Source of the DNA: a virus
Lineage: Duplodnaviria; Caudoviricetes
DNA length: 64,000 nt
Virus record (IMG/VR): IMGVR_UViG_3300032266_000694
Location: 57-64,056 of that record
Direction: 5' to 3' (one strand)
Under the pieces are notes generated by a model that made no database searches, was not told where the DNA came from, and saw only the letters and a list, made by a program, of their open reading frames with translations. Made by a program: the position numbers and the translations under genes. Position 1 is the stretch's first letter. Every line of letters begins with the position of its first letter. Below are positions 1 through 64,000 of this stretch, one piece after another.

Positions 1-3000
1 TTGATGTTACCGCTCAAGAAAGCATTGAGAGAATTCTGCAATCCGTTTGTAGCGATATAAGATTTAGCATCAGCAAATTGTTGTTCGCGGGGTACGGATT
101 GGTAGTACCAAGCGTCCAAAAGTTTATCCTTCACTTTGCCTTCCGGGAGAACGTCAACGAACTGCGTGACGATATTCTTTACGGCTCGGCTCTCACGAAT
201 CTCGGGGGCCGGAGCAACCAGCGGGGAAACCATATTTACGGAACGAAGTTGTACGTTGGGTCCCCAATTTCGTTTTGCTCTCTCTACGGCTTGGAGAAAA
301 TTCATCCCACGAATAGCATCGGAAGCCCATGTATTTCCGTTGTCAGAAGATATTTCTAGCTGCAAGGAATAGGGATATTTTGTTTCGTAAAAACCTTTTC
401 CTTCTTTTCCGCTGCCTTCTTTCGGAAAACCTAAAAGCTGATTTTCTACATTTTCGTAATTTGTTTTAATTTTTCTCAAATCAGAACCGACTGGAGCATC
501 CATTTGCTGATCCTTGGTTAGTCCTCGTGAATAGAGCTTAGTACTTGGATTTTTACCGCTCTCTTTATACAACAACCTCTTGAGTACTTCTGGATTTTGC
601 TTGAGGTACTCAGCTCGGAGTTTAACTGGACTCAATCCTTTGCCTTGATATTTTGCCTCAAACGACTCTGGAAGCATTGCGTTTTGCATGAAATCTGTGA
701 AAGCATCCTCTCTTTGTTGCCCATAAAGACCGCCTCTAGGCAGAGCCTCTACTGCCTTTGCCATTGGGGATTCTTGGCTTAACGCCGATGTAACCTCCAT
801 CAGTCCTCGTGAAAATAGGGAGAGTTGCTCCATTTTGGGAACTTCGACCTCTGGTACTGCCGACTGCTGTTCTAGGACAAGATTCTCTGGCTTTGTGCTT
901 GTCTCCACTTGCATGAGATCTGACTGGAAGGCGATTCCAGGCCATTTCTCTTCACGAGCCTTGTTCATCAGCATCGTGTAAAGAGTCTCTTCTTGAGAGG
1001 ACAACTGCTGGGGAGGTATCGGACGATAATAGCCGTCGTCTTCCTTCTGGTAGGATCCGTGCTTTTTCTTGTGTAGCTGTAGGAGCTTGGTCTTTAGGAC
1101 ATCAATGTTGTTCCTGTCCTTATCTTGGATTTTGATGCCTCGGGCAAACAAGGTGGCCTGTTCCAGCTTTTTCTCGACGTTCCCTTGGCGAAGATTTTCA
1201 ACCATCTTCATAAAGTCGAACGGCTGGCTGGATAGTTCCAAAGCGGCCGATTGCCCTTGGGTCAGAATTGTCGGCTTGATTGCCGAGTTCTGAATCATTG
1301 CGTTCCTAGCTTCTTGAGGAAGTTCGGCCGCCAAGGCTTGCATGTACTCCTTGAGGTTTCCGTTGATCTCAATTCCAGCTTGTCCTGGTATCGATGCCAT
1401 CTCGGTTTGGAAACGATTGTCGCTGTACATTTCGGTAACGAATTCGTGAATGTTTCCAAGGCCGTAGTAGATCGAGCGAACCTTCTGTGGGTCAGTCTGG
1501 ATGTCTGTGACCTTTGTTCGGAACATCGGGGCTGTCGCACGAACCTTGTAAGATGCGTAGAAGAGAGGTTCTAGGTCTTGCTGGCGGAGTTTCTCAATAC
1601 CGCTTGGGGTTAGAACAAGGGTCGTGTTTTGCACTCCGCTTGTTTCCATTCCGCCCAATGCCTCTTCATCCGTCTGGTTCAAGAACACAAAATCTGGGGA
1701 TCCCTTGGAGGCGACAAGGCTCATTCCAGAGTTCCGACCCATTGGTCGTGTTCCTTCCAGCCCTCGATTTTTGAGATATTTGAGGAGGGGGAAGGTGTTC
1801 TCGCTGGTGATCTCGGCCTTCATGTGAATCCCATCCTGTCCAATAGCCCATTCGTATGGGGCCATGTGCAGGGTCACATCGTAGGTAGATGCCAATCCAG
1901 TCCCGAAAACAGCGTCTGCCACAGGGTTGCCAGCGGTATCTTTGGATGCGTTGACGGCCGCCAAATAGGCCTTAATCAGAGCTTTGAGTGGTTTGTATCC
2001 GCCCTTGCTTCCGCTTGCCAATGGCAGGGGATTACCCTCCGCATCCATCTCGATATCTGGGCGGTTTGCGTACTCGACAAGTCTATCCAGCTCCTTCTTG
2101 CCTGTTGCCGTACCAATTCCTTCTTTCACTAAAAGGTTATGAGTCAGAACGTGCTTATACTCGTGGATCGTTGTTTCAATCGGTTCACCGCTGTTCTTGA
2201 TTCCATTAAGGCTCAATACGACCATTCCGTTACCTTCTTTGGATGGCTTGTAGTACGACCTTACAAAGCTCGGATCTGGATTGATTTCGGCTGGTACATA
2301 AAGCCCAGCGGTCATCATGCTTTGCTTGGTGTTTGGCGTAGTAAGCAGTTTCGCCAAGGCTCTCTGGCTCGGTAGTGCGTCTGGCTCGTTCGCAACGGCT
2401 GTGAGGAGATCCCTAAACAGGACGCTATTTCCAGCGTTGCTGTCCAGATAGTTCACCAAACCACGAGAGAACAGAGTCATCTGACCCTTGGTTTCTTCAA
2501 TAGCCTTAAAGCCTTCCATCGGGCTGGCTTCATTAGGGTCTTGATCTTCTCTTGCTGTAGGAGCTTCGATCCCTAAGAAATTTGCGTACTTGGCGAGCTG
2601 GCCTTTGAGGCTTTGGATATGCTTAAACGTCCAAGATCTGTCTGGAGCGACTTCGCCATCGAGGTTGCCCACGTTCCTAGATTTGTAGGCTTCGGGAGTC
2701 TCGGAGATCTGCTGATAGCTCGCCCCGCTGACATACATCATAAAGATCTTCCTGTCGGAATCGGCCAGCGAGGCCATGACCTTTTCGAGCTTGTCGTAGA
2801 GTTCCTTGTTGGATTCTGGGGCTTCTTTTTGAGCCATGTAGTCGCCCACGGAGGCTTCTTCTTGTTCGACATCGCCCTCTTCGTTGAATGTCCCGCTTAT
2901 CGGAGCGTCTTTAGAAATGGTCTCACGGCTCTTGGCTTCTTCTTGCATCTGCTTAATGCGGTTATCAACGGCAGACAGGATGAAGTTAGGCACGTTCTCG

Positions 3001-6000
3001 ATTAGTTCGCCCTTGGTGTTTTGTCCGTGACGCTGGTTAATCTGTGCCTGTAGGGCGATTGCGTAGTCGTATAGGTTCTGGTGGATTTCGTCTTCTCCTA
3101 AGTTTCCAGCTTCGAGCCATCCGTCATCCGATGCCTTCATCGCCTTGTAGCGAATGTTTCTTCCGATGACTCCTTCTGGGGAGAAGTCTTTTGCGTTATC
3201 GTCGGTCAAGAATCCTTCGACGATTTGCTCTTTGGCTCGGCCTTGACCAGCTTCACGGCGTAGACCTCTTGAGCGTAGCGAGAACCCATTCTTTGGTCCT
3301 CGATACATCCAAGCATCATGTCCTTGATTGATTTTAGCCACGATCATCGTTGCGATGGCGTTGCTGTTGTCTAATGCCTCTTTCCTGTAACCCTCGTTCT
3401 TATCATCGAGGAATGCTTTGTCTGGGATGTAGAGGCTTTGCCCAGAGATCATTGACCCGTCGCTGAACACAACAGCCCGAGGTCTGCCTTCCTCGTCGAT
3501 AATGTTATCCATTACCTTGCCGACAGGGCCAAGCAGGGATCCTTGGCCTTTGGCTACTTCTGCCTTGAGATTGACTAGGTTGTCGGAGTTGACCCCAGCG
3601 GGCATCACTACGCCAGTTGTCTTGCCACCATCCTTGGTTGTGAAGGTGGTGACCGCCGCTGGGACATTAGCCCCGAACATAGAGGAAACGAAATTCGCCC
3701 CTGTGAGGAGATTGCCCTCGACCACAAACTGGTCTCTCTGGGTCGCATTCTGCCTTGATCTATCGTAGGTCTTGCCGAATCCGTCACCCTTACGGCTTTC
3801 GGGCATCTTTTCCTCAACGTATCTATTCCAAGAATCTGGATCTAAGGCGTTATCTCCAGTAGTAAGCACCTTGTTGATTGCCTCGTTGAATACTCGGTTC
3901 TCGATCTCAGATTCTTCCACTCCGCTCTCGTGCATCTGAACCGCCATCTCGTATGCAACTGCATTAACCTCTCGCAGTTGCTCTGCGGGAAGAGTGTCCA
4001 CGCATAGAAGGCGAGGCCCGCGCATAAAAACGACCAGACCAGATCCGTCCGTGTTGCGGTAAATGCCAACTGGCAAACTTAAGGGGTCTACGCTTGGGTC
4101 ACGAGTAGGAGCTTCGTTTTCGCCGATAGGTGTCTTATCCAGAGAGACCTTGAAGGGATTAACGTGAGCGAGTTCCGATGCCTGTAGAGGGATTCGGATC
4201 TTGTTCTCGAACCCAGAGGTTTGGATGACTAGGTACTGCCGACTTTCGGCGTGAGGGAAGCGGTTGTTCAGCTCAACACCTACGACATAGGCGGGGATCT
4301 GTTTTGTATCCTTGCCGAACCAAGCTCCCTTGCCAACGAGGTCTAAGGCTCGCTCCACATTGTACTTGGTCTGGGCGTACTGCTTCCGAGACTTCTCCAA
4401 AGCTCTTACCTTTGCCATTTGCTCCATCCGTGGGTTGCTTGAAATACGGGCCAGCTTGTCCTTTAGGACAGAGTCGCTGGCTTTTAAGAAGTCTGATACG
4501 GCTGTTTCGGCCTGTTGTTTGGCCTGTTCGAGGGTCGGGATTACCTCTGCCGAGGTCGGAGGAGGGGTCGGGTTATTGAATCGGTATTTTGCAATGCGGG
4601 CGGGCTTTGCAAATGCGTCTTTACCAGAATCTTGGTTTGTTACCTTATTTTCTATTCTTTGGCTTTCTTGGTAAGCCAGCCTTGTTTGCGCTGATAGAAT
4701 TACATCTTCCCATGTTGTGCTGTACCTGTCTGCATTTACCCACTTGTCTCCGTCTTTTGTCATAAGAAGCTCATATCCGCCCTTAATCTTGCGAACCTTA
4801 AACTTGTAAAGTTCTGACCAAGCCTGTTCTTTTTCTAATGGGATTGAAATCGTTACTTGCGTCCCAACATCCGCTCTGTCCATGGGATTGTTCGCCTTAA
4901 TTGGCTCAAGGTATTCTTGATATTGTCCGATTTCGTCCATTTGTACCACGGACTCTTTTGCTTTTTTGTAATCGGCTGGTGATGGTTCATAGCCAGCGGC
5001 GATCCCATACGCATCCCAAGCCTTTTCGTCAGACAACTTCTCGGCCTTGTAGTCTTTTTCTTGTGATTCCAGCTCGTAGGTTCCGTTCTGTTTAGCGAAA
5101 TCCACCATGGCAACGTATTCGGCTGTGATTTCCTCGAAGAAATGTCTCTGATCCTCGATATCCAAGATCAAGGCCTTGTGGATCATCCTTCGCATCCCAT
5201 CCCCTGGCTCACCCGAAGTTAGGATCTTTCGGATATCCTCAAATTTCTCGGGGAAGTTGGTTCCAGCTCTGGTGTTGTAGGCCGTTCGTAGCTCTGGTTC
5301 GTTTGCCAATACAAGGGCAACGGCGTTGTCTCCGTAGGTATTGAGCATATCCAGCCCAAGGTTCTCGCCAGCGGCCGTGACGTCCTTTCCAGTCGTAGAC
5401 GCACCGAGACGGCGCATCTTCTTCTGGGTCATCGCCATGATCCGCACTTCGGCAGGGATGTCCTCGCTGTAGATGTAGACAAGTTTGGGCGCACTTTGCT
5501 GATTGTTGCGGTTTGTTCTGCCCAAAACTTGGATTGTATCGACGATATCGGGAGCTGGTTGCATCACGATATGGGTTCTGGGAGCTGAACTCTTGTTGCG
5601 GGGATCGTCGTGTGCCGAAAGCCCAGTCGAGCCAGTTCGGCTGACGATCAGAACCTTCGTCTGGTCATTGTTACGGAAAGCGATTAGGGAGTTTTGCTTG
5701 TCTTGGTCGGTGACGGATCTCTGCGAGAAAGCACCAGAGGGGGTGACTGCGATGTCCCGACCCGATATCTCGGCACTTAGGATCTGCCGTCTTTGCAGTT
5801 CAGCACGCAGGGCATCAAATGGGCTGATTGGGAGCTTATTGAGGGTCTCGGCATTGTCCTTGATAATTAGGGCTAGATCCTTGAATCCAGTCTCCATTAA
5901 GGAGTCGTGAAGCTCGATGGACTTTTGACTTACCCAGCTAGGGATGTTGGACTTGCCGTTGGTCTTGTTCCAATCAATCGTGAATTCAAGGGCAGGGGCT

Positions 6001-9000
6001 TCGCTCTTTTCATCCGCTGGCTCGATCTTGACCTTGTTTGTGTTGAGCTTCCTTGCGTACCTCTCCATAAAATCCTTAAAGGTGACCTTCGAGACCTTGT
6101 CGTAGCTCTGAAGGGTTCCGCCCTCCATAATCTCCTTTGCATCCCGAAGGAAGGCCTCGCCAGTCGTATCCATTGAGATGAACACCTTGCGACCAGCTTT
6201 GATTTCAGCCTCGGCCAAGTCTGCTGTGTCCTTGATTTTAGCTCCAAGAACCATGTTGGCGGCGACATTGTGGAACTGGCCAGAAAGGGGATAGATAAGG
6301 GCTTTTGCTTCCGTTCCGTCGTAGGCTTCCTGTGCATCCTGTACGAGCTGTTGGGTCAGCTTCTTCATCTTTTCGCCGATCTCGATCTGCCTCATTTCCC
6401 CGAGGATTTCGTTGGCGGCATTATGGGCATCAATGACCTCTTGCTTGGCTTTGATCGGGGATGGGATGAATGGGATCTTCTGACCCTTCCAAGTAAATCC
6501 GCTCTGGAGGCGGAACATCTGGCCAGCACGAGACAGCATACTGCTGGTCATCTGCATGAATGGATTGCCGAACCGCTTGGCGAGTCTCTCGAACTCACTT
6601 GCGGTAGGAACAGCCATTGGGATGCTGGTCTTGGGGAAGTATGTGGCGATGTTGGCTGGGCTTTTGATAGCCGTTGCCGAAGAGAACACCGCTCCTCGTG
6701 ATCTTGGAATTACGCTTCTAAAGAATTCGCCGATAGAGCTGTCTGTTCCCGCCGCATTGTGGCTCTCGTCCAAGATAAAGATCGCCCTGTCTGCGATTGC
6801 ATTAAGGGCAGGGATAACATCCTTCTTTGCCACCGAGGAGATCTGGGCATAGGTCGTAAAGACTGCGTTATGCTCGCTTGGCATCTTGCCAGTCTGTGCG
6901 GTGAGTCGGAGCTTCTGGATCGGGTTCTTCATCGTAACTGGGCGACCCTTGCTACGCATCGAACTCCAGTTGTTATTTGTGATGAGCGGCTTGATCTGCC
7001 CCTCGAATCCTACGTCCTCGATGTCATCAAGCATCGCTGGGTACAAAGGCTCGGATTTTGTTACAAAAACAGGAATTAGACCCTTTTTGAGGGCATAAAC
7101 GGCCATGATTGACCCAACGATGCGACCCTTACCAACACCCATCTCGTGTCCGATAGTAAGGCTTTTGCCTTTCTCAATCTGATTGATGGAAAGGGCGATG
7201 GTCTCCAAGGCTTCTGCCGAGAGTCTTTCCTCGCCGTCATCCCGCTTGAAGATCTTATCGACAGGGATCCCGATCATCTTTGAGACGTACTGCGGGATCG
7301 GGCCGACCTCTTTAACCAGCTCGTTAATAGCCGAGGTCTGTTCGGGTGCGAGGTTGGCAGGGGCTTGAAGACCTAAAGAGTAGTAGCCATCAATCTTCTT
7401 GGATTCTTCTTCTCCAACTGGAGTCCAGCTCTCTTGTAGCTCGGCCTTTTCTTGGTCTTTGTCGATCTGCTCTTCCCGAGGATCTGGGGCAGGGAGGCCT
7501 CTGGAGCTTAATCTGGTTTTAGATAGGGTCTTCTCGACGGCCTTTTGAGCGGCACTTTGGATTGTTTGTCCAAATGTTTCCTCTGAGGCAATGGGTACAG
7601 GTTCGCCAAATATGTCCGTACCGCCCATGTCCTTGAGGTCTTGGATCTTGGCTTCCAGCTCTGCCGCCAGATTGTTTAGGTAGCTGGAGAGCTTTGCGCT
7701 GGAATCTCTGAAATCGTAAATAGGCTGGAAGACATCGGCGGAAGTCTGGTCGAGGATATTTTCCGCAAGTCCAGGGATCTGGCTTCGATTGTTCTCAACG
7801 AAAGACTGCCAATCCTTGGGAGTGTTTTCTCCGCCAGACCTCTTGGCCTCCAGATAGGCCTGTAGTGACTTGGCAATCGGAACAAGCGGGTCGAGCTGGG
7901 ATGCTTTTTCTGCACCCAGAACCTCTGTGGCTATCTGCCGTAATGAAACAAGTCGGGCAACTGATTTCGTTAGGGCGGCGGCCAAAGTCTTTACCCCAGC
8001 GTTGCTGTTTTCTGGGTCGGTAATGGCGGAGATGATGATCTTTTCGGAGTCTGTAATTTTGCCGTTATTGGAGCTGGCAATCGCATCAGCGAGAAGGGCA
8101 GAGGTTACTCGATCCTTGAAGGACTTTGTGAAGGTCTCGTCGTTGTTCCTGTACTGCTGTGGTGAACCAAATATCTCAAAAAACTTCTGCTGAATCGCCA
8201 CATTATCGGGGGTTTCCGATAGATCTCCGTTTTCGTTTTGCTTGATATCTCGGAGTTCTGGGTTGTCTTGTATTTCACGAGCATCGGAGACGGCAAGCTC
8301 TTCAGTCGCCAAAGTCCCTGTGTTTGCCCTTACCGCAAGCCTCCTCAAGAACTGCTCTGGCGTTTTGTTGACGCCCAACCCAGTTGCCGTCTTGTTGGAC
8401 TCTTCAAAACTCGCCATTAGATCCATCTCGGTGACCACAATCGGCATCTTCATAGATCGGATCTGTTCGGCCATTTCTGGGAACTTCTCCATCAGCTTGG
8501 CTCGATAGGCGGCCGCCCGCTCTGGGTAGCGACGGAACATTTCTATCATTGCCTTGATCCGTCCGTGACCGCTTACGATTTCGTTCTTATCGGTAAGGAT
8601 GGGTGCGCCGTCTCCTGTAGATGTTCCTGGCATCGCTTTGTCTGGATCCCAGTTGCGAGCCATGGTCTCAATCTGTGTTTTATAAGCATCCCGATCTTTT
8701 CGGTTTCTTGGCTGGATGTCCGTGCCTTCCATGTCCTTGGCCTCGGTGGCCTCGATAATTTTGGGCGTCCCGATAACTGTTGACCCAGTAAAGCCCTGCG
8801 TGAATGCCTTGATCGTATTCTTCTTGGGTGTCGGTGCGGGCTTGTTTTCGCCCATCATCTTCTTTGCCACTTCTGATGGATCTATGATTACTGCTCCGTT
8901 TTCATCCAAGAAAGAGTCGCTCTCTGGATTCATTAACACTTCCGAGACGTTAACCTTGATTACCTCACGGAATTTCTTCCCAGCTTCTCTTGCTTCGGCT

Positions 9001-12000
9001 TCGTTCATGCCAGTCGCATCCATAACAAACTTCAAATATTCAGCGTCTCTTTCGCTCGGATTGCGCTGGGCGATGATATAAAGAGCCTTGTCGATATCGT
9101 TGTTAAAGCTCAGTTGAAATAGATTAGATCCGAACCCATAGCGGGGTTTTGCTCCCGCTAGGTAGCTTGGGAGTTTTGGTAGTCCATTTGTAGTTGGGGC
9201 TGGGGGGACAGGCGGAGCGGGCGGAGCGGGTGGCTCTGGTGGGACTGGAGGAGCGGGTGGCTCTAATTGTTCTTCTGCTGTGGCAGGGGCGGTAGGCCTT
9301 GGGTTTGCTCCAGTTGAGGGAAGGTTAGGCTGAACTAACCCACCAGACCTTTTGCCTGTAATCGACGCTGGCGGGACTCCGAGTCCAGCCCAGTCCACCT
9401 TCTTGCCTTTGAGTACATCTTGTATCTTGTTAAGGAGGTCATCCAGTTCTGCTCCGACTTGCGGATTTGCGCTGGAAAGAGCCTTACGCATCCGACTCAA
9501 GGCTTTGTATACGGCCATTAAGTACTGCTTAATTTGACCGATAAGATCCTTGATTTTTACTCCGACAGCTTTTTCTCCACTTGGATAATTGCCCTGTGAT
9601 GCCTGTCTAAGTTCAATTCTGCTTTCTGTTAAGCCACCTTTGGCTTCTATTGTTCCAAGTTGTCTGAGCATCTCGCTCATTACTTGCATCGTCTTTACTT
9701 CGTCTCCAGCAAGGTAGTTTTTGATTTCGCCTACACCCGCTGGCGATCCATCGAAGTCCGTATTTGGATCGTATAAAGAAATGGAGGAGATCAGCGCTTT
9801 TAATACTTGTGTGTCGCTTTCGCCCACCTCCAAAATTTTGTTAAATAAATCGTTCCTACGCTTAACGTGATAAGAGGCGTACTGGTCTGGGCTTAACCCT
9901 TTAGCTTTTGCCTCCTGTATTGAAACTGCAAAGTCTCCAATGTGTAGAACCTCTTCGCCAAATGCCCTGTTGTTAATCTCGGCATCTTGCGAGTCTTGAA
10001 ACTTAAAGTGCGTTGGATCGACTCTTAATGAAATTGAACCATCATTACTGATGCTCGCTTGCATCGACGTTCCGCCGATTTCACCTTCTTCGTAGTTAAG
10101 CCTTATTCCATCAACGGATAGCCCTTTTGCCAGCTCGGAGGTCTTTGCTTTTGCAGACTCAATTCTTTCGATTGATGTTGTGCCAGCCAGTTTGTTGCCA
10201 GACCTTTGAAGTAGCTTGGTTGGAGTGTTTTCGAGAAGGGGCTTCTCAACCTTTTCTGGTTCGTCTGAGGATCCTTCCGTAGCTCGCATCCCAAGTGCTT
10301 CAACCCTTGCCTCAATGGCGGGGATCATGCTCTTGATGTTTTCGTAATCGATGATTGAGGGGACGTTCTTAAAGAAATCTTCGGCAAAACTTGGATTTAG
10401 GATCGTCGCTCCGTCTTCTCGTGTCTGGAAGATCGGCATTCCCTTGATCTTGTAAGACCCCATCTCCTCGGTTATCTGGCCTCCAGTAATGATGTAAGAG
10501 GCCGCTTTTGCCGCCTCTCTCTGGCTCAATTCACTTTTAGATGCAGGGACGTCAGATAGCTGGCTGATCTCATTACGAGTGTTGTTTTGGGCTTTTGCCA
10601 ATGCAGAGATTGTTTCAGCAACGTGCGCTCTTACTGCGAAGTACTCCATCTCGTCGGCGTTCTCCTTGAGCAAATCCAGCTTGTTGCCGATATTGATAAG
10701 CCTGTTTGCGGGCTTGAGGGCTTCGGGTTCTGGTTCGCTCTTAGATAGTTCGCTCTTAGATTCAGTTCTCCCCTTTTCGATTGCTTGAAGAACTTTTTGT
10801 ATATTTTGTCGTAGTCTCTCGGGCGACTCGGCTAGACCTTTTTCAACTGGTGTTACCCCGATTTCACCTAAACCCTTATTAATTGAATTTCCAGACCCAA
10901 CTGGTTTTCCGCTTGTTTGTGTGCCTAATTGTGCGTCCAATCTCTCTGCCATCGCTTTTAACTCTGGGGAACCATAATAAGCGTTAATTTGTTCCTGAGT
11001 TCCCTTGTTGATCCAACCATCTGCGCCAATACCAAAAACTGGGTACCATTTACCTGCCTTTACGTTTTTCTTACCAGCGTATCCAGTTGATCTGTAAAAC
11101 GGAATTTTAACCCCGTTAACATCGACAACCACCATCTCTCGATCCGCAAAACGAACTACTTTTGACTTACCGCTAGTCTTCTTTACAGATTGAGTAGCCT
11201 CATCCCATTCTAGATTATTTTCGTAAGATATTTCTTCAAGGTTAACTTCTGGCGTTAATGTAGGAGCGACAGCTTCTGCAACTTGCCCAGCTAATGGCCT
11301 TGCGTTAAGGACAACATCAGAAGGGGATCCAGATCCTTGGCTGTTTGCCCAAGCCTCCCATCCTCCTGGTTCAATGTCTGCCGTGGCTTTTTGAAGCTCG
11401 AACGATGCTCCTTCTTGGGCTTCGTCAGTTGCACCGATCGTGTTAATGAACTCCTGTCCGAACATGACGCTCTTCTCGGCTCCCGCTGTTACTTGAACTG
11501 CAAGACCTCCAGTTGCGGCCGCAATGATAATGCTCCGTGCCACTTCCTCGTTTGGGTCTCTGGCGGGGTCATAGTCTGCAATCTCAATGGCAATCTGATT
11601 GAGCCATCTCTGCTGGAGTCCTTCGGTAACGCCTTCTACTGCTCCACCCTTGATTGACGGCCACAAAAACTTTGACGCAGACAGGGCATATTTAGCCAAT
11701 AGGTTTCTGGCTTGGGTGGCTGGGAGCTTGGCGAGGGCGAGCTTTTTGCCCAATCCCAAGGTGAACTTGTCTGAAATTGTATCAATCCCTGCGGCGGGCA
11801 GAGCGTAGGTCAATGCGGCAACGTGGCTCTGGCTAGGGGTTAATACTATTCCAGTCTTTTTCTGGGCTTCCTCTTGGTCGGCGATTGCCTCGGCATACAG
11901 AGACGAGACATTCCCAAGATATCCAACAGCACCAGACCCAATAGGCCCAAGCGGAGCGGAGGCAACGTAGGTCATCATCTGAGCTGGAAGCTCTGAAATG

Positions 12001-13964
12001 CCCTTAATGACACCGCCTGTTACGCTTGCGTTAAAATCATTATCGGTAGGGAATGTCTGGTCTAACCAATCCCGATTCTCTTTGGCCGCTTGAGATGCGT
12101 TAAGGAAGAACTCGCCACCGCTACCACCAAGCTGGCGTCCGACCAATGCGTAGAACCCGCTAGCTTGATCTTGGTTAAACCGAATCGACCCCTTGATCGC
12201 TTGGTTAATGGTGTTCCCAATAAATCCTCGTTTGTCCTTCGGTGCTTTCTGGATCTCCTTGCTGGCCTCGATGGCTACTTTTGTTGGGATCTCTTTGTTC
12301 TTCGCCTTTTCCATCAGCGAGTCCGTTGGAGCTTCTGGACTGATATCTGCTGGCTTTGGCTTTACCGCTTCGCCAGTTAGGTATTTCCTCTGATTAACAG
12401 CTCCAGCGGTCTTGTTTGCCTCATAGTCAACCTTGGCCTTTTGGCTTTCCGCCTCCTGTTTAGCGCTTTCAATAGCATCTTTTTCGAGAGACTGGGCTGA
12501 TTCGAGGGACTGGTTGCCCATAATGACGCTTGGCAATTTCCCTTTGAGGTCGGCCTCAAGGACATCAATAGCCCTGCTGGATGCGTCAATTTCATCTTGT
12601 GAAGCCCCAGATTTGATAAGCTCATTGTGTTGGGCGATGGCTAGATCTGTCTTTTTCCGCAACAGAGTCCATACAGCCCTAGCGTTGACGGCGGGCTTTT
12701 TAATTTCGTCGGTGTATTCGGCAAGCTTCTGTTTGCGGTTCTCAAGGTTGGCATCGACTGATTTCTTGACTTGCTCTGCCTCTTGTCTGACTCCTTTGGC
12801 TTCCTCAGACTCTGGGAGGCCGATCATCATTCCGTTAACTACGGATGGGATCATACCCTCGAGGGCTTTGGGAAGGGCAGGGGCGTCTGGGTCGAGATTG
12901 CCTAAATTGAGGGACGATGCTGATTCTTGTAGTGCTTTATATATCGGATCATCCTTGGGGTCATTGGACTTGGAGCCGTCAGCTTTGACAATGCCTTGCT
13001 TGCGAACGTCTTGACCTCTTTGCATGAGGGCGTTGAAGGTTGCTTCTTTTTGTTTTTGTTTTGCAAGTTCCGCTTGGAGAGTTTTGTGGTTCGCAAGTTC
13101 CGATTTTTTTTCATTTAACTCCTTTGTGCGGGCTTGCTCTGCGCTCGCTAGTTCCTTGGCGTATTTGTCCCTTTCCTCGTCGCTATCGCCACCTGTGAAT
13201 GGCGGAGGGTTGTCTCTTGCCTCTTTAATTTGAGCCTCAAGCACGCCGATATCTGCTTGCAACGCATCCTGTGTGGCCTTTAGGCCTCTGAATGCCTCGC
13301 CGTAAATCTTGTTGTCTCTGCTTGTTCTCTCATCCCTAGCAATGGTGCGAATAGCTTCGTCATCCGAGTCCACCAGTTCATCAATGCTCCCGATCCTCTT
13401 GGATTTGCGGGTTGCATCACGCTCTGGGGTCGCACCCTCGACTTGGGGTTTGCCCATGGGGACTCGGTAGATTGCATTTGGATCTTCGCCGTAATCTTTA
13501 TTTCCTGTCTTAATTTGGACTGGAACTTCTGGCTTGTTGATTGGGTTGCCAAATTCGTCAAACTTTGTTGTACCGCCTAGTTCGTTTGGAGTTTCCCCAG
13601 ATCCCCATTCCAGAGTCGGCATTCCTTTGTTATCGGACGTAACCTTCGGCTCAACTCCACCGCCAGCTACTTGCCGATGCCTTACGCCAGCGGTATCTAG
13701 GGTGCGTTCGGTCTGGGCGTTAGAGCGATCTCTGGACGCTTTTGCTTCTTGGTTAGCTATCTGGTTAAGTTTGTTGGCGTCGCTTCTTGAAATGTATGTC
13801 GGGGCAGGGGCGGGCTTCGGTTGGCTTGCTTCCTGTTCCTCTTGTCGCTTCTTGCGAATCCGAGCCAATAATTTGTCTGCTTCGTCTGGTTCGGGGCCAG
13901 CAAAAGCAGTTCCTTGGATGCGGTTAGGGCGTACCGAGGGATTCAACTCGCTGGGCAAGCCCAT
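1..13964 (-). CDS. Giant polyvalent virion/ejection protein, N-terminal >=4654 aa (runs off left edge; absent from ORF track)
   Basis: ATG at 13964 (MGLPSELNPSVRPNRIQG...) lies 3 nt after the stop of the upstream gene. Frame spot-translated open at 1-380, 510-545, 795-830, 1130-1160, 2450-3300 and 7490-7520. The ORF track lists no stop-terminated minus ORF in this frame, consistent with no internal stop. Confidence 0.92.
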   Translation of the reverse strand, partial: MGLPSELNPSVRPNRIQGTAFAGPEPDEADKLLARIRKKRQEEQEASQPKPAPAPTYISRSDANKLNQIANQEAKASRDRSNAQTERTLDTAGVRHRQVAGGGVEPKVTSDNKGMPTLEWGSGETPNELGGTTKFDEFGNPINKPEVPVQIKTGNKDYGEDPNAIYRVPMGKPQVEGATPERDATRKSKRIGSIDELVDSDDEAIRTIARDERTSRDNKIYGEAFRGLKATQDALQADIGVLEAQIKEARDNPPPFTGGDSDEERDKYAKELASAEQARTKELNEKKSELANHKTLQAELAKQKQKEATFNALMQRGQDVRKQGIVKADGSKSNDPKDDPIYKALQESASSLNLGNLDPDAPALPKALEGMIPSVVNGMMIGLPESEEAKGVRQEAEQVKKSVDANLENRKQKLAEYTDEIKKPAVNARAVWTLLRKKTDLAIAQHNELIKSGASQDEIDASSRAIDVLEADLKGKLPSVIMGNQSLESAQSLEKDAIESAKQEAESQKAKVDYEANKTAGAVNQRKYLTGEAVKPKPADISPEAPTDSLMEKAKNKEIPTKVAIEASKEIQKAPKDKRGFIGNTINQAIKGSIRFNQDQASGFYALVGRQLGGSGGEFFLNASQAAKENRDWLDQTFPTDNDFNASVTGGVIKGISELPAQMMTYVASAPLGPIGSGAVGYLGNVSSLYAEAIADQEEAQKKTGIVLTPSQSHVAALTYALPAAGIDTISDKFTLGLGKKLALAKLPATQARNLLAKYALSASKFLWPSIKGGAVEGVTEGLQQRWLNQIAIEIADYDPARDPNEEVARSIIIAAATGGLAVQVTAGAEKSVMFGQEFINTIGATDEAQEGASFELQKATADIEPGGWEAWANSQGSGSPSDVVLNARPLAGQVAEAVAPTLTPEVNLEEISYENNLEWDEATQSVKKTSGKSKVVRFADREMVVVDVNGVKIPFYRSTGYAGKKNVKAGKWYPVFGIGADGWINKGTQEQINAYYGSPELKAMAERLDAQLGTQTSGKPVGSGNSINKGLGEIGVTPVEKGLAESPERLRQNIQKVLQAIEKGRTESKSELSKSEPEPEALKPANRLINIGNKLDLLKENADEMEYFAVRAHVAETISALAKAQNNTRNEISQLSDVPASKSELSQREAAKAASYIITGGQITEEMGSYKIKGMPIFQTREDGATILNPSFAEDFFKNVPSIIDYENIKSMIPAIEARVEALGMRATEGSSDEPEKVEKPLLENTPTKLLQRSGNKLAGTTSIERIESAKAKTSELAKGLSVDGIRLNYEEGEIGGTSMQASISNDGSISLRVDPTHFKFQDSQDAEINNRAFGEEVLHIGDFAVSIQEAKAKGLSPDQYASYHVKRRNDLFNKILEVGESDTQVLKALISSISLYDPNTDFDGSPAGVGEIKNYLAGDEVKTMQVMSEMLRQLGTIEAKGGLTESRIELRQASQGNYPSGEKAVGVKIKDLIGQIKQYLMAVYKALSRMRKALSSANPQVGAELDDLLNKIQDVLKGKKVDWAGLGVPPASITGKRSGGLVQPNLPSTGANPRPTAPATAEEQLEPPAPPVPPEPPAPPAPPVPPAPTTNGLPKLPSYLAGAKPRYGFGSNLFQLSFNNDIDKALYIIAQRNPSERDAEYLKFVMDATGMNEAEAREAGKKFREVIKVNVSEVLMNPESDSFLDENGAVIIDPSEVAKKMMGENKPAPTPKKNTIKAFTQGFTGSTVIGTPKIIEATEAKDMEGTDIQPRNRKDRDAYKTQIETMARNWDPDKAMPGTSTGDGAPILTDKNEIVSGHGRIKAMIEMFRRYPERAAAYRAKLMEKFPEMAEQIRSMKMPIVVTEMDLMASFEESNKTATGLGVNKTPEQFLRRLAVRANTGTLATEELAVSDAREIQDNPELRDIKQNENGDLSETPDNVAIQQKFFEIFGSPQQYRNNDETFTKSFKDRVTSALLADAIASSNNGKITDSEKIIISAITDPENSNAGVKTLAAALTKSVARLVSLRQIATEVLGAEKASQLDPLVPIAKSLQAYLEAKRSGGENTPKDWQSFVENNRSQIPGLAENILDQTSADVFQPIYDFRDSSAKLSSYLNNLAAELEAKIQDLKDMGGTDIFGEPVPIASEETFGQTIQSAAQKAVEKTLSKTRLSSRGLPAPDPREEQIDKDQEKAELQESWTPVGEEESKKIDGYYSLGLQAPANLAPEQTSAINELVKEVGPIPQYVSKMIGIPVDKIFKRDDGEERLSAEALETIALSINQIEKGKSLTIGHEMGVGKGRIVGSIMAVYALKKGLIPVFVTKSEPLYPAMLDDIEDVGFEGQIKPLITNNNWSSMRSKGRPVTMKNPIQKLRLTAQTGKMPSEHNAVFTTYAQISSVAKKDVIPALNAIADRAIFILDESHNAAGTDSSIGEFFRSVIPRSRGAVFSSATAIKSPANIATYFPKTSIPMAVPTASEFERLAKRFGNPFMQMTSSMLSRAGQMFRLQSGFTWKGQKIPFIPSPIKAKQEVIDAHNAANEILGEMRQIEIGEKMKKLTQQLVQDAQEAYDGTEAKALIYPLSGQFHNVAANMVLGAKIKDTADLAEAEIKAGRKVFISMDTTGEAFLRDAKEIMEGGTLQSYDKVSKVTFKDFMERYARKLNTNKVKIEPADEKSEAPALEFTIDWNKTNGKSNIPSWVSQKSIELHDSLMETGFKDLALIIKDNAETLNKLPISPFDALRAELQRRQILSAEISGRDIAVTPSGAFSQRSVTDQDKQNSLIAFRNNDQTKVLIVSRTGSTGLSAHDDPRNKSSAPRTHIVMQPAPDIVDTIQVLGRTNRNNQQSAPKLVYIYSEDIPAEVRIMAMTQKKMRRLGASTTGKDVTAAGENLGLDMLNTYGDNAVALVLANEPELRTAYNTRAGTNFPEKFEDIRKILTSGEPGDGMRRMIHKALILDIEDQRHFFEEITAEYVAMVDFAKQNGTYELESQEKDYKAEKLSDEKAWDAYGIAAGYEPSPADYKKAKESVVQMDEIGQYQEYLEPIKANNPMDRADVGTQVTISIPLEKEQAWSELYKFKVRKIKGGYELLMTKDGDKWVNADRYSTTWEDVILSAQTRLAYQESQRIENKVTNQDSGKDAFAKPARIAKYRFNNPTPPPTSAEVIPTLEQAKQQAETAVSDFLKASDSVLKDKLARISSNPRMEQMAKVRALEKSRKQYAQTKYNVERALDLVGKGAWFGKDTKQIPAYVVGVELNNRFPHAESRQYLVIQTSGFENKIRIPLQASELAHVNPFKVSLDKTPIGENEAPTRDPSVDPLSLPVGIYRNTDGSGLVVFMRGPRLLCVDTLPAEQLREVNAVAYEMAVQMHESGVEESEIENRVFNEAINKVLTTGDNALDPDSWNRYVEEKMPESRKGDGFGKTYDRSRQNATQRDQFVVEGNLLTGANFVSSMFGANVPAAVTTFTTKDGGKTTGVVMPAGVNSDNLVNLKAEVAKGQGSLLGPVGKVMDNIIDEEGRPRAVVFSDGSMISGQSLYIPDKAFLDDKNEGYRKEALDNSNAIATMIVAKINQGHDAWMYRGPKNGFSLRSRGLRREAGQGRAKEQIVEGFLTDDNAKDFSPEGVIGRNIRYKAMKASDDGWLEAGNLGEDEIHQNLYDYAIALQAQINQRHGQNTKGELIENVPNFILSAVDNRIKQMQEEAKSRETISKDAPISGTFNEEGDVEQEEASVGDYMAQKEAPESNKELYDKLEKVMASLADSDRKIFMMYVSGASYQQISETPEAYKSRNVGNLDGEVAPDRSWTFKHIQSLKGQLAKYANFLGIEAPTAREDQDPNEASPMEGFKAIEETKGQMTLFSRGLVNYLDSNAGNSVLFRDLLTAVANEPDALPSQRALAKLLTTPNTKQSMMTAGLYVPAEINPDPSFVRSYYKPSKEGNGMVVLSLNGIKNSGEPIETTIHEYKHVLTHNLLVKEGIGTATGKKELDRLVEYANRPDIEMDAEGNPLPLASGSKGGYKPLKALIKAYLAAVNASKDTAGNPVADAVFGTGLASTYDVTLHMAPYEWAIGQDGIHMKAEITSENTFPLLKYLKNRGLEGTRPMGRNSGMSLVASKGSPDFVFLNQTDEEALGGMETSGVQNTTLVLTPSGIEKLRQQDLEPLFYASYKVRATAPMFRTKVTDIQTDPQKVRSIYYGLGNIHEFVTEMYSDNRFQTEMASIPGQAGIEINGNLKEYMQALAAELPQEARNAMIQNSAIKPTILTQGQSAALELSSQPFDFMKMVENLRQGNVEKKLEQATLFARGIKIQDKDRNNIDVLKTKLLQLHKKKHGSYQKEDDGYYRPIPPQQLSSQEETLYTMLMNKAREEKWPGIAFQSDLMQVETSTKPENLVLEQQSAVPEVEVPKMEQLSLFSRGLMEVTSALSQESPMAKAVEALPRGGLYGQQREDAFTDFMQNAMLPESFEAKYQGKGLSPVKLRAEYLKQNPEVLKRLLYKESGKNPSTKLYSRGLTKDQQMDAPVGSDLRKIKTNYENVENQLLGFPKEGSGKEGKGFYETKYPYSLQLEISSDNGNTWASDAIRGMNFLQAVERAKRNWGPNVQLRSVNMVSPLVAPAPEIRESRAVKNIVTQFVDVLPEGKVKDKLLDAWYYQSVPREQQFADAKSYIATNGLQNSLNAFLSGNI
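238..286. repeat. 49-bp exact direct repeat, second copy at 63952-64000 (cut by window edge)
   Basis: acggaacgaagttgtacgttgggtccccaatttcgttttgctctctcta occurs at both places. Both copies are read in frame as ERAKRNWGPNVQLRSV. Confidence 0.95.
1155..2456 (-). other. Zincin metallopeptidase (MPTase-like) module within giant protein
   Basis: ETTIHEYKHVLT (HEXXH at 2151-2165) plus downstream YGLGNIHEFVTEMYSDNRFQ, the typical third-ligand motif of polyvalent-protein metallopeptidases. Confidence 0.85.
2478..3260 (-). other. Sigma70-family-like module (region 2 to region 4) within giant protein
   Basis: EDEIHQNLYDY...NVPNFILSAVDNRIKQM (sigma2-like), ISKDAPI...EEASVGDYM (SLDxPI linker-like), LEKVMASLADSDRKIFMMYVSGASYQQISE...RSWTFKHIQSLKGQLAKY (sigma4 HTH-like). 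Recognised by eye. Confidence 0.65.
3282..7493 (-). other. Strawberry-notch-type SF2 helicase module within giant protein
   Basis: Motifs GHEMGVGKGR (Walker A, ~7125-7155), FILDESHN (Walker B, ~6755-6780), VFSSATAIK, SRTGSTGLSAH and IQVLGRTNRNNQ...P are characteristic of AAA_34/Helicase_C_4 proteins. Confidence 0.88.
8490..8760 (-). other. ParB-superfamily (DdrB-like ParB) domain within giant protein
   Basis: Translation IQPRNRKDR...GDGAPILTDKNEIVSGHGRIKAM...AAAYRAKL matches the QPRxR / GAPI / VxSGxGR pattern of ParB-like domains in polyvalent proteins. Confidence 0.75.
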
Positions 13965-52808: not shown

Positions 52809-52916
52809 GACATAAGCCAAAAGATCCAGAGCAAGAACGGAAGAGATTTGTTAGTGGATGCGACGCATAGTGATAGGCGAGGTTGCTGGATAGGATCTGG
52901 AGCGGATTAGTTGAGC

Positions 52917-60437: not shown

Positions 60438-63400
60438 CTACTTTGTCTGCTTTGCGTCGCCCATTGCATATCTCTGACGGACAATCTGTTCCTCGTATTT
60501 GTTGCGGAGCTTAGAGGCTAGATCTTGAATTCTTTGCTTCTTTTTGTCGGTTGGGTTGGCGATATCGGCTTCGGTAATGTTCACCTCGAACAAGGCCTGT
60601 AGCTGGGGCTGGACAATGGAGTTGAGTGTCTCTTGTTCCCGCAGAGTCAACCGAACCTTCTTTTTGCTGTAGGGATCTGTGATCTCGGCTCTGGGTGAGT
60701 TAAGAACCCAAGTCTTTCCATCTGTTGAGATCTGTTGCCTGTTGTAGGACTCCACGAACCGATTGAGCTTGGAGGCGGGCTTCTTTTTGTAGACGGCGAC
60801 AGGGGAGAGATTCCTAAGTGCAAACTTGGCAAACTTCCCAGCTTTGGTGTCTGGCACGACCTCCGTGAACGGCTTGACTACTTTTTTGCCTTCGTAGTCG
60901 TAAGCGTATGGAGTCCTGTATCCAGTAGCTGAAGGGTATGCTCCTATTGCAGGGGCAAACTTTGACAGCATCCTGTCTTTGTTTAACAGGCTTGGCTCTT
61001 CGGATGCAGTTCTGGATACATAATCTTTTGAGGCTTCCACAAGACCCCTAGCGATTGGAGGGGCTGTAAATACCGATGCAAAATCTATAACAGGGTCAAC
61101 CACGTTCCAGTCGACGAACAATCTCTTTGCTGTACGAAGCTGTCCTCCGAATGTTTTCTGGGTAAGGATTCTGCTGAAATCTCCAACAAGGTTTTGAGAG
61201 ACAGCGATTCCACCACCACGATGAACTGCGTCTTTTACTGCTGTTGCCAATGCAACACCAAATCCCATAGCGGTCACAAACGGCTCAATCCTGCTGATAT
61301 CGAACTCATTGTCGCCAATTCGGATCATATAGGATCTGTTCCCATACCTAGTCGTTCTGCCAGCGGAATCGGCTTGGGCGGCGGGGCCAGTAATCAACAG
61401 GAGCTTCTTATCGTCATCCTTGTCGCCTTCCATACTTCTGAACAGAGCCATCAGAATTGCTGTCCCAATCGCTCCCTCAGTAAGCCCTGCTACGGCGTTT
61501 TCGTAGTTGGTCAGATCCATAAACCTCTGGCCTTCTTTATTAGTTTTGACTGAATTCATCGCTCCGATTGCTGAATCGGCCAGTCCTACAGGGGTGAAGG
61601 CCATCCCTCTTGCCAGCACGTTGTACGAGATCCGAGCGAACAAGGTAAGGCCTCGAAGGATCTGTAATCCCATCGACCCACCGAAGGCCACAGGGGCCGT
61701 GACAGCTCTTGCTCCACCCTTGCTCGGGTCAAAGCCCCAGTTTTCGAGGCTCTGGGAGGCGTCGGATATGCCTTTGCTAACTTTATTCAAAGCCCGAGGG
61801 ATCGCCTTGCCAGCCCTCTTGAATGTAAACGGCTCGTCTTCGTTTGAGGCTACATCCTCGTTAAGGGTCTCACGAGAAGACCGCTCAACTGCAATTTTCC
61901 AAGAGTCAGACCCATACTCGCTGATCTGGTTCCGCACATAATCGACCATTTCTTGGCCTTTGAGGCCTTTTGCCTTGGCCATTCTGAATGCGATAGATCC
62001 TACAAGGGTTTCTGCCGTGAATGATTTAGCAAACTCGTCGGCCGCCAAAAGAGCCCGCAGGGGCAAGCGGATCTTCTTTCCAAAAGAGCCAGGGATCTTG
62101 GGATCGTTCTCGTAAAACTTCTGATCGCCTTCGTCCAGCAGGGTCGCATCGGTATGGTCGATGTTGTAGTAGGGCTTTTCGGTGTTGAATGCCAAGCGGG
62201 CGTACCGCAGTCCGTTAATTACGGAAGGCCACATCGCCATGAAAGCCTCTTTTGCTTCCTCGCTGGCTCCGTTCACAACATCCGAGACGCTGGCGTATGG
62301 GTTCCCGATTGTTCCGTCTGGAAGCCTCACATTGAGGCCAGCCTTGCCCATGAGGTAAGACATCCCAGCCTCCACCATCCGATAGAATGGGTTAAAGGCC
62401 ACGAAAGGGGTCTTCGATACGTTGGCAAGCTGGGTCGATGTGCTGGATACAAGCAGGGCAACGTGAGCTTCAAATACTGCATCACCGACGCTGGCTTTCT
62501 TTCCTTGCGCCCTGCGAACCATCTGCATGGCCACCCCGACGTTGCTTGGCTTCCTCCAGTCGAATAAGGAGCTTTTGCCGTCAACATTGTGCCAATCGGA
62601 CTTGCCAGATGTGTCCGACTGCCCTGCGTAATCAAATCCCATGGCTGACACAATCTCTGCGAGAATCTCTTCTTTGGTGAGGGGAGCCTCTTCTTGGTTG
62701 GCTTCGATACCCCTAGACCGCAGGGATGCTCCGTTGGCAAATGCGGTCAACTTTGCCCTCAACTGGCTTCTTGTGATCCCTTGGGTTGCAAGCTCTCCAG
62801 CTACTTGGTCAAACCTCTGCTTTGTGTTCGTCTCAAGAGATTTCATCAACTGCATCACTCTGGCTGGCTTGATCCCAGCCTGTTTAGCGGCCGCCATCGG
62901 AACCATTCCAGCCATCACAAGTCGGATTGCCTCGGCGTCATCTTTAGACATCTTGATTGTGTCCAGCACGTCTTGAGCTGATTTGCTCTCACGGATCTTG
63001 AGCTGGGCAGTATCCCAATCCATCTGCTCGAGGCTGGTATTTGCCTTTGCCAGCTCTGCCTGTAGAGCCTCTCTTTCTCTCGATGCTTTTTCTAGGGCAA
63101 CTTGGTTCTGGTCGTTAATTTCAGCCCATTGCCTGTTGTATTCCTCAACTTCTTTAATGCGAGCCTCCATGTAAGCTCCCCATCTCTGCCATTCCTCGTT
63201 TGCGTCAAAAGCCTCACCAGCCTGTCTCTTTGCTGTCTCCAGCTCCTCTTTTAATACCCGAATTAGCTCATTGTTGTTTTCAATAGCATTTTGCTTCTTA
63301 ACGGAGGAGACTGCATTGTTGTAAAGATCCAGCTCGCTTCTTGAGGGTCTCATAAGCTCATCCATGACAAATTGCTTATTTCTTTCCTCTCTGGTTAAAG

Positions 63401-64000
63401 GATCCAGCTTGCCCATGACTCCAAGGGCTCTTCCTAGGTTACTTCTTCCGTATCTCCTTTTTTGATCCAATAAGACATTTATTGGCGTAGCCCCGCTTTT
63501 GTTTGAGTCTTCTGCTGTGGCAATGCTTAACGCAACCTCAATTACATCGCTTGTTCGATCGAGGGTTCCGTCTAGCAATCCCTTGTAAAGTTTGTCCTTA
63601 TTTTCAGCAACCAGCTTTCTGGCGGCATTGACTACGTCTTGTTTTCTGTGGATCTCTGGGTTTTCAAGTTTATTGAGTTCAGCAGCGAGCCTTTCAACGA
63701 ATCTGTAATTATCATTTGCGTCTGGGCCAGCACTCATTACGTCTTGCCCAGCAAAAGGCGCCCCAATCTTGTACGGCATCGTCTCTGCGGATGCTCGATT
63801 GGCTAGATCGTTAATCTCCTCGTCGGTAATGACGCTTCCAGATGCTCCCAAAAAGGAGGCAAGCAAGTCGTTTAGCGGAGCTTGTTGTGCTCCATTATTG
63901 ATTGGTTCTTCCTCTGGCATCGGGGGAAGTCCTCGTGCCCGCAGGGAATTCACGGAACGAAGTTGTACGTTGGGTCCCCAATTTCGTTTTGCTCTCTCTA
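60438..64000 (-). CDS. C-terminal >=1186 aa of a giant internal virion protein (5' end beyond window; probably the same gene as 1-13964)
   Basis: Frame is open past GTG 63953 to the edge. It shares SLR[AS]RG motifs and the 49-bp repeat with the left ORF. RALLAADEF.K and IRIGD...DISRIEPF are typical of podoviral ejection-protein C-termini. Confidence 0.85.
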   Translation of the reverse strand, partial: ERAKRNWGPNVQLRSVNSLRARGLPPMPEEEPINNGAQQAPLNDLLASFLGASGSVITDEEINDLANRASAETMPYKIGAPFAGQDVMSAGPDANDNYRFVERLAAELNKLENPEIHRKQDVVNAARKLVAENKDKLYKGLLDGTLDRTSDVIEVALSIATAEDSNKSGATPINVLLDQKRRYGRSNLGRALGVMGKLDPLTREERNKQFVMDELMRPSRSELDLYNNAVSSVKKQNAIENNNELIRVLKEELETAKRQAGEAFDANEEWQRWGAYMEARIKEVEEYNRQWAEINDQNQVALEKASREREALQAELAKANTSLEQMDWDTAQLKIRESKSAQDVLDTIKMSKDDAEAIRLVMAGMVPMAAAKQAGIKPARVMQLMKSLETNTKQRFDQVAGELATQGITRSQLRAKLTAFANGASLRSRGIEANQEEAPLTKEEILAEIVSAMGFDYAGQSDTSGKSDWHNVDGKSSLFDWRKPSNVGVAMQMVRRAQGKKASVGDAVFEAHVALLVSSTSTQLANVSKTPFVAFNPFYRMVEAGMSYLMGKAGLNVRLPDGTIGNPYASVSDVVNGASEEAKEAFMAMWPSVINGLRYARLAFNTEKPYYNIDHTDATLLDEGDQKFYENDPKIPGSFGKKIRLPLRALLAADEFAKSFTAETLVGSIAFRMAKAKGLKGQEMVDYVRNQISEYGSDSWKIAVERSSRETLNEDVASNEDEPFTFKRAGKAIPRALNKVSKGISDASQSLENWGFDPSKGGARAVTAPVAFGGSMGLQILRGLTLFARISYNVLARGMAFTPVGLADSAIGAMNSVKTNKEGQRFMDLTNYENAVAGLTEGAIGTAILMALFRSMEGDKDDDKKLLLITGPAAQADSAGRTTRYGNRSYMIRIGDNEFDISRIEPFVTAMGFGVALATAVKDAVHRGGGIAVSQNLVGDFSRILTQKTFGGQLRTAKRLFVDWNVVDPVIDFASVFTAPPIARGLVEASKDYVSRTASEEPSLLNKDRMLSKFAPAIGAYPSATGYRTPYAYDYEGKKVVKPFTEVVPDTKAGKFAKFALRNLSPVAVYKKKPASKLNRFVESYNRQQISTDGKTWVLNSPRAEITDPYSKKKVRLTLREQETLNSIVQPQLQALFEVNITEADIANPTDKKKQRIQDLASKLRNKYEEQIVRQRYAMGDAKQTK

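Follow-up and report, generated by a model that had tools for sequence, protein, structure and literature searches.

The 64,000-nucleotide stretch of DNA analysed here, called the window throughout, covers bases 57-64056 of the 64,056-base virus record IMGVR_UViG_3300032266_000694 and stems from an SU10-like short-tailed phage. Between its terminase and portal genes lies the gene for a giant protein of about 5,746 residues, in which a short peptide of the form L-x-[SA]-R-G-[LI] recurs at the joints between otherwise unrelated modules. This junction peptide, the modules that it separates and the activity that might read it are the subject of the present analysis. An earlier note on the same DNA had proposed that the protein is a polyprotein with a defined processing or translocation signal, placed next to a HExxH metallopeptidase that could act on it.

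The giant open reading frame (ORF) is encoded on the minus strand. It opens with an ATG at 13964 and leaves the window at its start after 4654 aa; at the window end the ORF list and its translation give a second piece of 1186 aa ending at 60438. In strand and course the account of the earlier note is thereby corrected. Both pieces share a 53-nt repeat with one mismatch, at window 234-286 and 63948-64000, whose offset of 63,714 is a multiple of 3, so that they join in frame. Nine close IMG/VR loci have the giant ORF uninterrupted, with the portal gene next after it. Given the in-frame offset of the repeat and the continuous ORF of the relatives, the two pieces are read as one frame of ~5,746 codons in a circularly permuted genome of ~63.7 kb. 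The ORF and its modules are laid out as follows.

234..13964, minus strand: first part of the giant ORF, residues 1-4577 of ~5746, up to the 53-nt repeat
60438..64000, minus strand: last part of the giant ORF, the C-terminal 1169 residues plus stop, with the 407-aa module and the ~755-aa C-terminal domain
8427..8768, minus strand: DdrB-like ParB domain, residues 1733-1846 (Pfam PF18763, E 1e-15)
5070..7229, minus strand: Strawberry-notch-like (Sbno) helicase (Pfam AAA_34, residues 2246-2481; Helicase_C_4, residues 2731-2965)
2700..2795, minus strand: weak sigma-70 region-4-like helix-turn-helix (Pfam Sigma70_r4_2, E 0.0025, below the cut-off)
1155..2456, minus strand: zincin-like metallopeptidase module, residues 3837-4270 (HEYKH at 2151-2165; YG..N..EF at 1440-1466)
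234..518, minus strand: inserted 95-aa cassette, residues 4483-4577
60441-62705, minus strand: conserved C-terminal domain of ~755 aa, common to 14 lineage representatives
1..233, minus strand: record end, extending the ORF frame with foreign sequence (MVSPLVAPAPEIRESR...) of another phage group's giant protein

No family match was found for the N-terminal part of the protein, which contains a moderately hydrophobic stretch near residue 808, and matches to Sigma70_r2 and r4 are clearer in the relatives L063, L067 and L078 than in the window. The C-terminal domain is the most widely shared part; it displays an invariant acidic cluster EGDxDDDKK, an RxPxRxLxxxDxFxK block and moderately hydrophobic helices, has no family and no PDB sequence match, and may anchor the giant protein in the head or belong to the ejection apparatus. 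Several unrelated enzyme and effector domains are thus found in one chain of ~5,746 aa, and its gene stands beside virion and late genes, between the large terminase (15479-17221) and an SU10-type portal (58181-60415), with genes for an SU10-type adaptor and a capsid protein nearby. On both counts the giant protein is a phage polyvalent protein by the definition in the main text of Iyer et al. (2017; PMC5512222). Going by gene position only, packaging into the head and delivery along with the DNA are most likely.

A scan with the strict pattern.L.[SA]RG[LI] yields eight matches in the giant frame, whereas 2000 residue shuffles of this protein average 0.038 matches and never exceed 2. The eight copies, which the earlier note had located correctly, all lie in one minus-strand frame. 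Scanning the whole window in six frames brings the number of matches to nine through RLHSRGL at 61811-61831, on the same strand but in another frame, and the strict motif is present in no other gene of the window, capsid and portal included. An additional relaxed site, LNARPL, is absent from the earlier note; it is kept as LNAR[PS][LI] in 10/10 full-length relatives and falls in the same region as an extra site, LQARSL (aa 878), of the distant homologue P0018. The first 885 residues of the giant protein hold no junction site. YLKNRGL (1758-1778), a weaker match that had been reported inside the peptidase module, is not kept in relatives (L006-L008 have YLKDQGL or HLKDQGL) and is therefore not taken as a site.

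11292..11309, minus strand: relaxed junction LNARPL, the ninth site, residues 886-891
7494..7514, minus strand: junction RLSSRGL, residues 2151-2157, separating the N-terminal part from the helicase
3261..3281, minus strand: junction SLRSRGL, residues 3562-3568, separating the helicase from the sigma-like module
2457..2477, minus strand: junction TLFSRGL, residues 3830-3836, separating the sigma-like module from the zincin
1134..1154, minus strand: junction TLFARGI, residues 4271-4277, at the end of the zincin module
801..821, minus strand: junction SLFSRGL, residues 4382-4388, a cassette insertion point in relatives
519..539, minus strand: junction KLYSRGL, residues 4476-4482, a cassette insertion point in relatives
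63927..63947, minus strand: junction SLRARGL, the second boundary of the inserted 95-aa cassette
62706..62726, minus strand: junction SLRSRGI, before the conserved C-terminal domain

These positions bear out the description of the peptide as a marker of module boundaries, namely those of the helicase, the weak sigma-r4-like module, the HExxH module and several modules of 94-111 aa. Three junctions are preceded by a string of the form Q-x-[ST]-L-F on the minus strand (QLSLF, 801-830; QATLF, 1134-1163; QMTLF, 2457-2486).

Close relatives of the giant protein comprise 14 proteins with 83-98% identity over the peptidase module, together with the nine IMG/VR loci, and the motif is kept at every homologous joint among them. 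At the five joints without cassette indels the motif columns are 0.93-1.0 identical, as against an alignment mean of 0.79 over 10 full-length relatives, and in the same alignment the stretches beside several joints show indels and variable sequence rich in proline, glutamate and aspartate. Codons differ among the copies in the window, as had been claimed, and orthologous sites vary synonymously between relatives, TLFSRGL being found in 6 DNA versions, KLFSRGL in 6 and SLFSRGL in 5. The different codons and the synonymous drift at orthologous sites argue that selection acts on the peptide and not on the DNA.

The peptide also accompanies the gain and loss of modules. Relatives differ in how many small cassettes they have between the peptidase and the 407-aa module, each extra cassette coming with one extra motif (ALFSRGL in P0013; TLKSRGL and DLYSRGL in P0014; SLYARGL and KVFARGL in P0016), and in the full-length alignment the cassette indels fall exactly at the motif. 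Elsewhere two junction peptides stand 10-17 residues apart where relatives hold a whole cassette, as in P0011 (residues 4279-4302, KLYSRGL-10 residues-SLRARGL, the empty form being KLYSRGLTTDEQQMEANSLRARGL) and in L059 (residues 1005-1028); such empty pads look like footprints of cassette loss.

The 95-aa cassette of the window phage and its SLRARGL are absent from the nine close IMG/VR loci. Over its last 87 aa this cassette has 98% identity with an insert in the giant ORF of L012 (residues 2001-2087), which belongs to an unrelated phage group; the cassette is an insertion in both phages, is absent from L014, and sits in an L012 protein that carries no motif. It has no known family and looks like a module of ~87-95 aa that moves in frame between phages. 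L012 is 98% identical to P0001 over residues 4491-4654, L013-L016 match the tail only, and L012-L016 form a different group of phages of 67-70 kb, the source of the type of sequence seen in window 1-233. This segment is probably an assembly chimera, formed via the module common to both phages. The 233 bases to the left of the repeat in the window amount to 289 in the full record.

Beyond the close relatives, an HMMER search with the peptidase module against 1.84 billion representatives returned only five proteins at E<=0.001, two of which, P0017 and P0018, are giants 31-34% identical to the query. A search for longer proteins returned sequences of 1202-3430 aa only and added no lineage, and Atlas look-ups and a scan of genome contigs gave nothing. 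The motif of the window is absent from P0017 and P0018, each of which has a peptide of its own, and a scan with the C-terminal region revealed further lineages that share the ~755-aa domain but combine it with other payloads (InPase, MuF_C, an Eco57I-like methylase, SNF2, HATPase, sigma r2/r4). The junction codes of the distant lineages are the following.

P0017 (AQRI lineage): [ILM]-x-A-Q-R-[ILM], 9 copies
P0018: L-x-A-R-x-[LI]-[DE]-P, 7 copies
L058 and L066: L-x-A-R-x-P-[DE]
L059: L-x-A-[RK]-x-P-D
L061: Q-x-L-x-A-K
L065: L-K-S-[QS]-x-L
L070: Q-x-M-A-[AG]-P

The codes are specific to their lineages, as counts of three patterns illustrate.

L.[SA]RG[LI]: 8, 7 and 7 in the window, P0008 and P0016; 0, 0 and 0 in P0017, L024 and L028; 0 in P0018
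AQR[ILM]: 0, 0 and 0 in the window, P0008 and P0016; 9, 9 and 6 in P0017, L024 and L028; 0 in P0018
L.AR[^G][LIA]: 1, 1 and 1 in the window, P0008 and P0016; 1, 1 and 1 in P0017, L024 and L028; 7 in P0018

The AQRI peptide recurs at the same spacing in five more loci of its lineage. Overall identity to the distant homologues is 25-37%, and BLAST of the inter-motif segments between lineages shows them to be collinear, with only corresponding segments matching and the matches reaching the segment ends. At the site that follows the zincin the lineages align in every column (LFARGI / LFAQRI / LLARQI), and at the position of SLRSRGI every motif-bearing lineage carries its own motif. Most of the versions have a core in common, consisting of a hydrophobic residue [LMI], any residue, a small residue [AS] and then usually R, K or Q; L070 is the exception, with A or G in the last place. 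The giant ORF of L047 (6052 aa), which shares the zincin core only, contains about 10 copies of a [DE]-I-D-P-E-[ES]-V-like peptide, which may be another kind of junction or a domain-start signature.

A candidate cutter within the giant protein is the zincin. H, E, H, Y, G, E, F and F are invariant in 19/19 aligned zincin sequences of many lineages, which gives HExxH and a downstream YG..N..EF whose Glu may serve as a metal ligand. An AlphaFold2 (AF2) model of the module with both flanking motifs, built on the 19-sequence alignment, places HExxH and the downstream Glu in helices 114-133 and 358-367 and puts three strands (77-81, 90-92, 100-104) ahead of the HExxH helix, the layout described for zincin-like metallopeptidase (MPTase) domains in the main text of PMC5512222. 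Going by its sequence, the embedded HExxH module is an intact zincin. Junction sites flank it in four lineages (window, AQRI, P0018, L061), and the zincin of L061 has the same HExxH...YxLxNxxEF signature.

The earlier note had suggested structure prediction as a means of seeing whether the motifs sit in disordered linkers. The two models obtained are too weak to show linkers. In the zincin model (mean predicted local distance difference test score, pLDDT, 59.8; core 74-88) the motifs stand at the edges of the confident core, and the flanking segments are modelled as helices of low confidence. For the last 1186 residues, modelled on an alignment of two lineages only, without the C-terminal part of P0018, the mean pLDDT is 37.6 and the model is unusable.

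How might these observations be brought together? The peptide is uniform within each protein, specific to each lineage, fixed at the joints and present with every mobile cassette, a combination that points to one co-evolving, trans-acting reader. Such a reader would most likely be a protease, and since the pattern is that of polyproteins cut by a virus-specific protease, cutting is the first reading to consider. Two features of a polyprotein are found, namely a short consensus that recurs at module boundaries and a consensus that co-varies with lineage. On comparative grounds the chances that the junction peptides are cleavage sites appear somewhat better than even, and the odds of cutting are divided roughly equally between the zincin and an unrecognised protease. 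The best explanation of the whole, with a probability of roughly 0.55, would be a modular polyvalent precursor cut at nine junction peptides, with the zincin perhaps as the cutter.

In such a scheme the junction peptide at each of the nine joints, L-x-[SA]-R-G-[LI] or, at one of them, LNARPL, would be cut to release about ten products of approximately 891, 1266, 1411, 268, 441, 111, 94, 102, 407 and 755 residues. Their order would be the N-terminal part, ParB, the Sbno helicase, the sigma-like helix-turn-helix, the zincin, three small cassettes, the 407-aa module and the C-terminal domain. The core common to most lineages (hydrophobic, any, A/S, R/K/Q) guides the placement of the scissile bond, which would fall between [SA] and R or just before the final [LI]. 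In the window lineage the cutter could be the protein's own HExxH zincin, at about even odds with an unrecognised phage or host protease.

RNA-virus polyproteins provide a familiar parallel, in which one ORF encodes modules separated by a protease-specific junction consensus that co-varies with lineage. As in those viruses, the predicted protease of the window lineage is embedded between its own sites. Unlike them, the present case is set in a dsDNA phage and involves one accessory protein, not the machinery of replication, and the embedded protease is not universal among the motif-bearing relatives.

Strong evidence weighs against the zincin as the general reader of the code, and some observations tell against cutting itself. 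The giant protein of L059 (complete genome; ~4,780 aa read) has seven sites and that of L065 (~5,660 aa) has six, and neither has HExxH or YxLxNxxEF, so that a cognate protease of this kind does not accompany the sites wherever they occur. L059 is collinear with L058 (65-75% identical) minus exactly the one HExxH cassette, at whose place two motifs remain 17 residues apart, and the 56 other ORFs of at least 90 aa in 3.3-44.6 kb of the L059 record contain no HExxH and no Pfam protease family. Conversely, crude self-similarity scans, in which many ORFs were partial, detected no junction code in L034, L046 and L047, which share the zincin core, or in the L063 lineage, L067, L069, L071 and L073, which share the C-terminal domain. 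Counted by lineage, with many ORFs read in part, motif and HExxH occur together in 6, the motif only in 2, HExxH only in at least 4 (L069, L034/L035, L046, L047) and neither in 4, which gives no clear association. With sites in lineages without HExxH and zincins in lineages without the code, a link between motif and zincin is not established.

Fold and family comparisons count on the same side. Foldseek of the model against the PDB gave nothing at E<=0.001, and a VIA fold search gave weak zincin rows (SPRTN, ArdC, neprilysin, HtpX and others, Z 3.4-4.9), its best match, at Z 5.5, being to a PhiM1 ejectosome protein. The PhiM1 match was dropped as a lead, and the paper on it makes no mention of a protease. 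The module falls in no curated peptidase family, has no Pfam match at E<=1 (nor has its AQRI-lineage homologue), and has no PHROG and no PDB sequence match. AF2 offers no usable support for the motifs as exposed linkers, the evidence for linkers being comparative only. The virion RNA polymerase of phage N4, a giant with a zincin, is packaged uncut according to the main text of PMC5512222. Of the polyprotein proposed in the earlier note, then, a selected protein-level signal at module boundaries, the exchange of cassettes at it and its lineage versions hold up, whereas cutting is probable and the HExxH module a possible cutter.

It is possible, at odds well short of even, that the cutting is due to a protease other than the zincin, whether an unrecognised activity in the giant or a head-assembly protein or an enzyme of the host, and that the zincin is payload. 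The persistence of the motif without HExxH in L059 and L065 and the optional nature of the HExxH cassette between L058 and L059 would both be explained, and a relaxed site of the same LNAR form as that of the giant protein lies 22 residues from the C-terminus of a putative scaffold encoded upstream of the capsid gene.

51840-52820, minus strand: putative scaffold ORF, with LNARDL at residues 304-309 of 326

The shared core, hydrophobic-x-[AS]-polar, may be counted on the same side, as we take it to resemble assemblin-type and Ser-Lys viral protease sites. Against such an enzyme stands the lack of any prohead or other protease family among the window ORFs (PHROGs, Pfam) and among the 56 ORFs of the L059 record. 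The C-terminal domain has no invariant His or Cys in 14 sequences and no obvious catalytic set, the two Ser residues conserved in 13/14 being unconvincing, and the strict motif is confined to the giant gene, being absent from capsid, portal and all others. Nor does the scaffold site clearly track the lineage motif (ISPKDL in the AQRI lineage, INASDV in L059), and it was set aside as a tracker of the code; the scaffold homologue in the L061 lineage (code LxAK) has VSAKDV. For a conserved host enzyme, the lineage-specific motifs are harder to explain. One may also envisage, somewhat doubtfully, a plug-and-play polyprotein in podophages of 60-65 kb, whose tagged payload cassettes would be swapped even between unrelated groups and whose dedicated, HExxH-independent protease would reside in the conserved parts of the giant or of head assembly.

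Less probable, and on balance unlikely, is an uncut docking or handling motif, which a packaging or ejection factor or a chaperone would bind, or which would mark module-by-module threading through the portal and tail. Protein-level conservation, the position at junctions and co-variation with lineage would fit a co-evolving binding partner as well as a protease, N4 provides the precedent of an uncut giant, and lineages that have no recognisable protease still keep the code. Yet no candidate partner came to light, it is not obvious why a binding motif should have to come with each inserted cassette and flank it on both sides, and the empty pads of P0011 and L059 look like excision remnants, not like a functional docking array.

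Sliding-clamp-binding peptides, left near new C-termini after a cut, are a very improbable account of some of the sites: QMTLF, QATLF and QLSLF presumably resemble the bacterial beta-clamp-binding consensus, and Q-x-x-L-F recurs in distant lineages (QGQLF and QGNLF in P0017; QQSLF in P0018), but only 3/8 strict sites are concerned and the invariant part is [SA]RG[LI], not QxxLF. Just as hard to credit are DNA-level recombination joints that would serve cassette shuffling as short homologies, kept alike by gene conversion and devoid of peptide function, for although cassette indels fall exactly at the motif and three variable-region copies share the string CACGAGGACT, gene conversion is rejected on the codon evidence, the eight copies using different codons for the same residues and orthologous sites drifting synonymously around a fixed peptide, and the motif is kept at cassette-invariant joints and at the homologous joints of proteins 25-37% identical.

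A precursor cut at its junction peptides would find its place among several known systems. Polyvalent proteins with zincin-like MPTase domains were described in phages by Iyer, Burroughs, Anand, de Souza and Aravind (2017; PMC5512222), and the idea that zincins process them, which the earlier note had treated as a published proposal, is indeed in print there. Like those proteins, the giant of the window is encoded among late and virion genes and unites a DdrB-like ParB domain, a superfamily 2 (SF2) helicase, a zincin and uncharacterised modules, and its relatives add InPase, MuF_C, methylase and sigma domains. It differs from the proteins presented in the main text of that paper in having a defined, lineage-varying junction peptide at which cassettes are exchanged, and in lacking a Pfam MPTase match. 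Neither a cleavage site nor a linker motif is defined in that main text, from which the word "linker" is absent and where "cleavage site" occurs only within a reference.

Two of the proteins treated in PMC5512222 are of particular interest for comparison. The DdrB protein of phage P1 is processed to ~76 kDa before packaging, and P1 DdrB/Dar resembles the present case in combining a DdrB-type ParB domain with a zincin (C-terminal in P1) in a head-packaged protein; it is ~10-fold smaller, its processing site is undefined, it has no repeated junction code, and the homology is confined to the ParB domain. The N4 virion RNA polymerase is likewise a giant, virion-packaged podophage protein with a zincin, as described in the same main text. 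Unlike N4, the window protein has no RNA polymerase domain that could be found, and no junction motif is known in N4.

The nearest experimental analogue is prohead-protease processing in giant phages. In phages of the SPN3US type, as described in two reports (PMC5694885, PMC10052503), a prohead protease cuts many packaged or ejected proteins at a short consensus; it is separately encoded, is essential for head maturation and acts on separate proteins, including the capsid protein. In the window phage, by contrast, the sites discussed belong to a single polypeptide, a prohead protease was not detected, and the capsid protein lacks the strict motif. A defined junction code for polyvalent proteins was not found in the literature searched, including the main text of PMC5512222, its supplements aside. 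What is new here is a polyvalent protein with a lineage-specific junction code; polyvalent proteins as such, and the proposal of zincin processing, were known.

Some further genes of the window lie outside this argument. Four plus-strand ORFs of 183, 865, 214 and 459 aa, without a family, occupy 52911-58003 between the portal and the scaffold-like gene and split the minus-strand block of head genes; they may be fibre or receptor-binding genes. The early region includes the following.

21420-22034, plus strand: SET-domain protein
22091-22726, minus strand: serine recombinase/invertase
31906-32508, minus strand: DNA methyltransferase

Polyvalent proteins are thought to be toolkits that phages inject against host defences. 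How one chain of at least 5,000 residues yields many working enzymes has so far been guessed, and the junction peptide makes that guess directly testable. Should the zincin turn out not to be the cutter, there would be a new protease to discover. For metagenomes, the peptide provides a sequence rule by which such giants could be split into functional units, and such a rule should help find new anti-defence modules, including cassettes that belong to no family, such as the 95-aa insert of the window phage.

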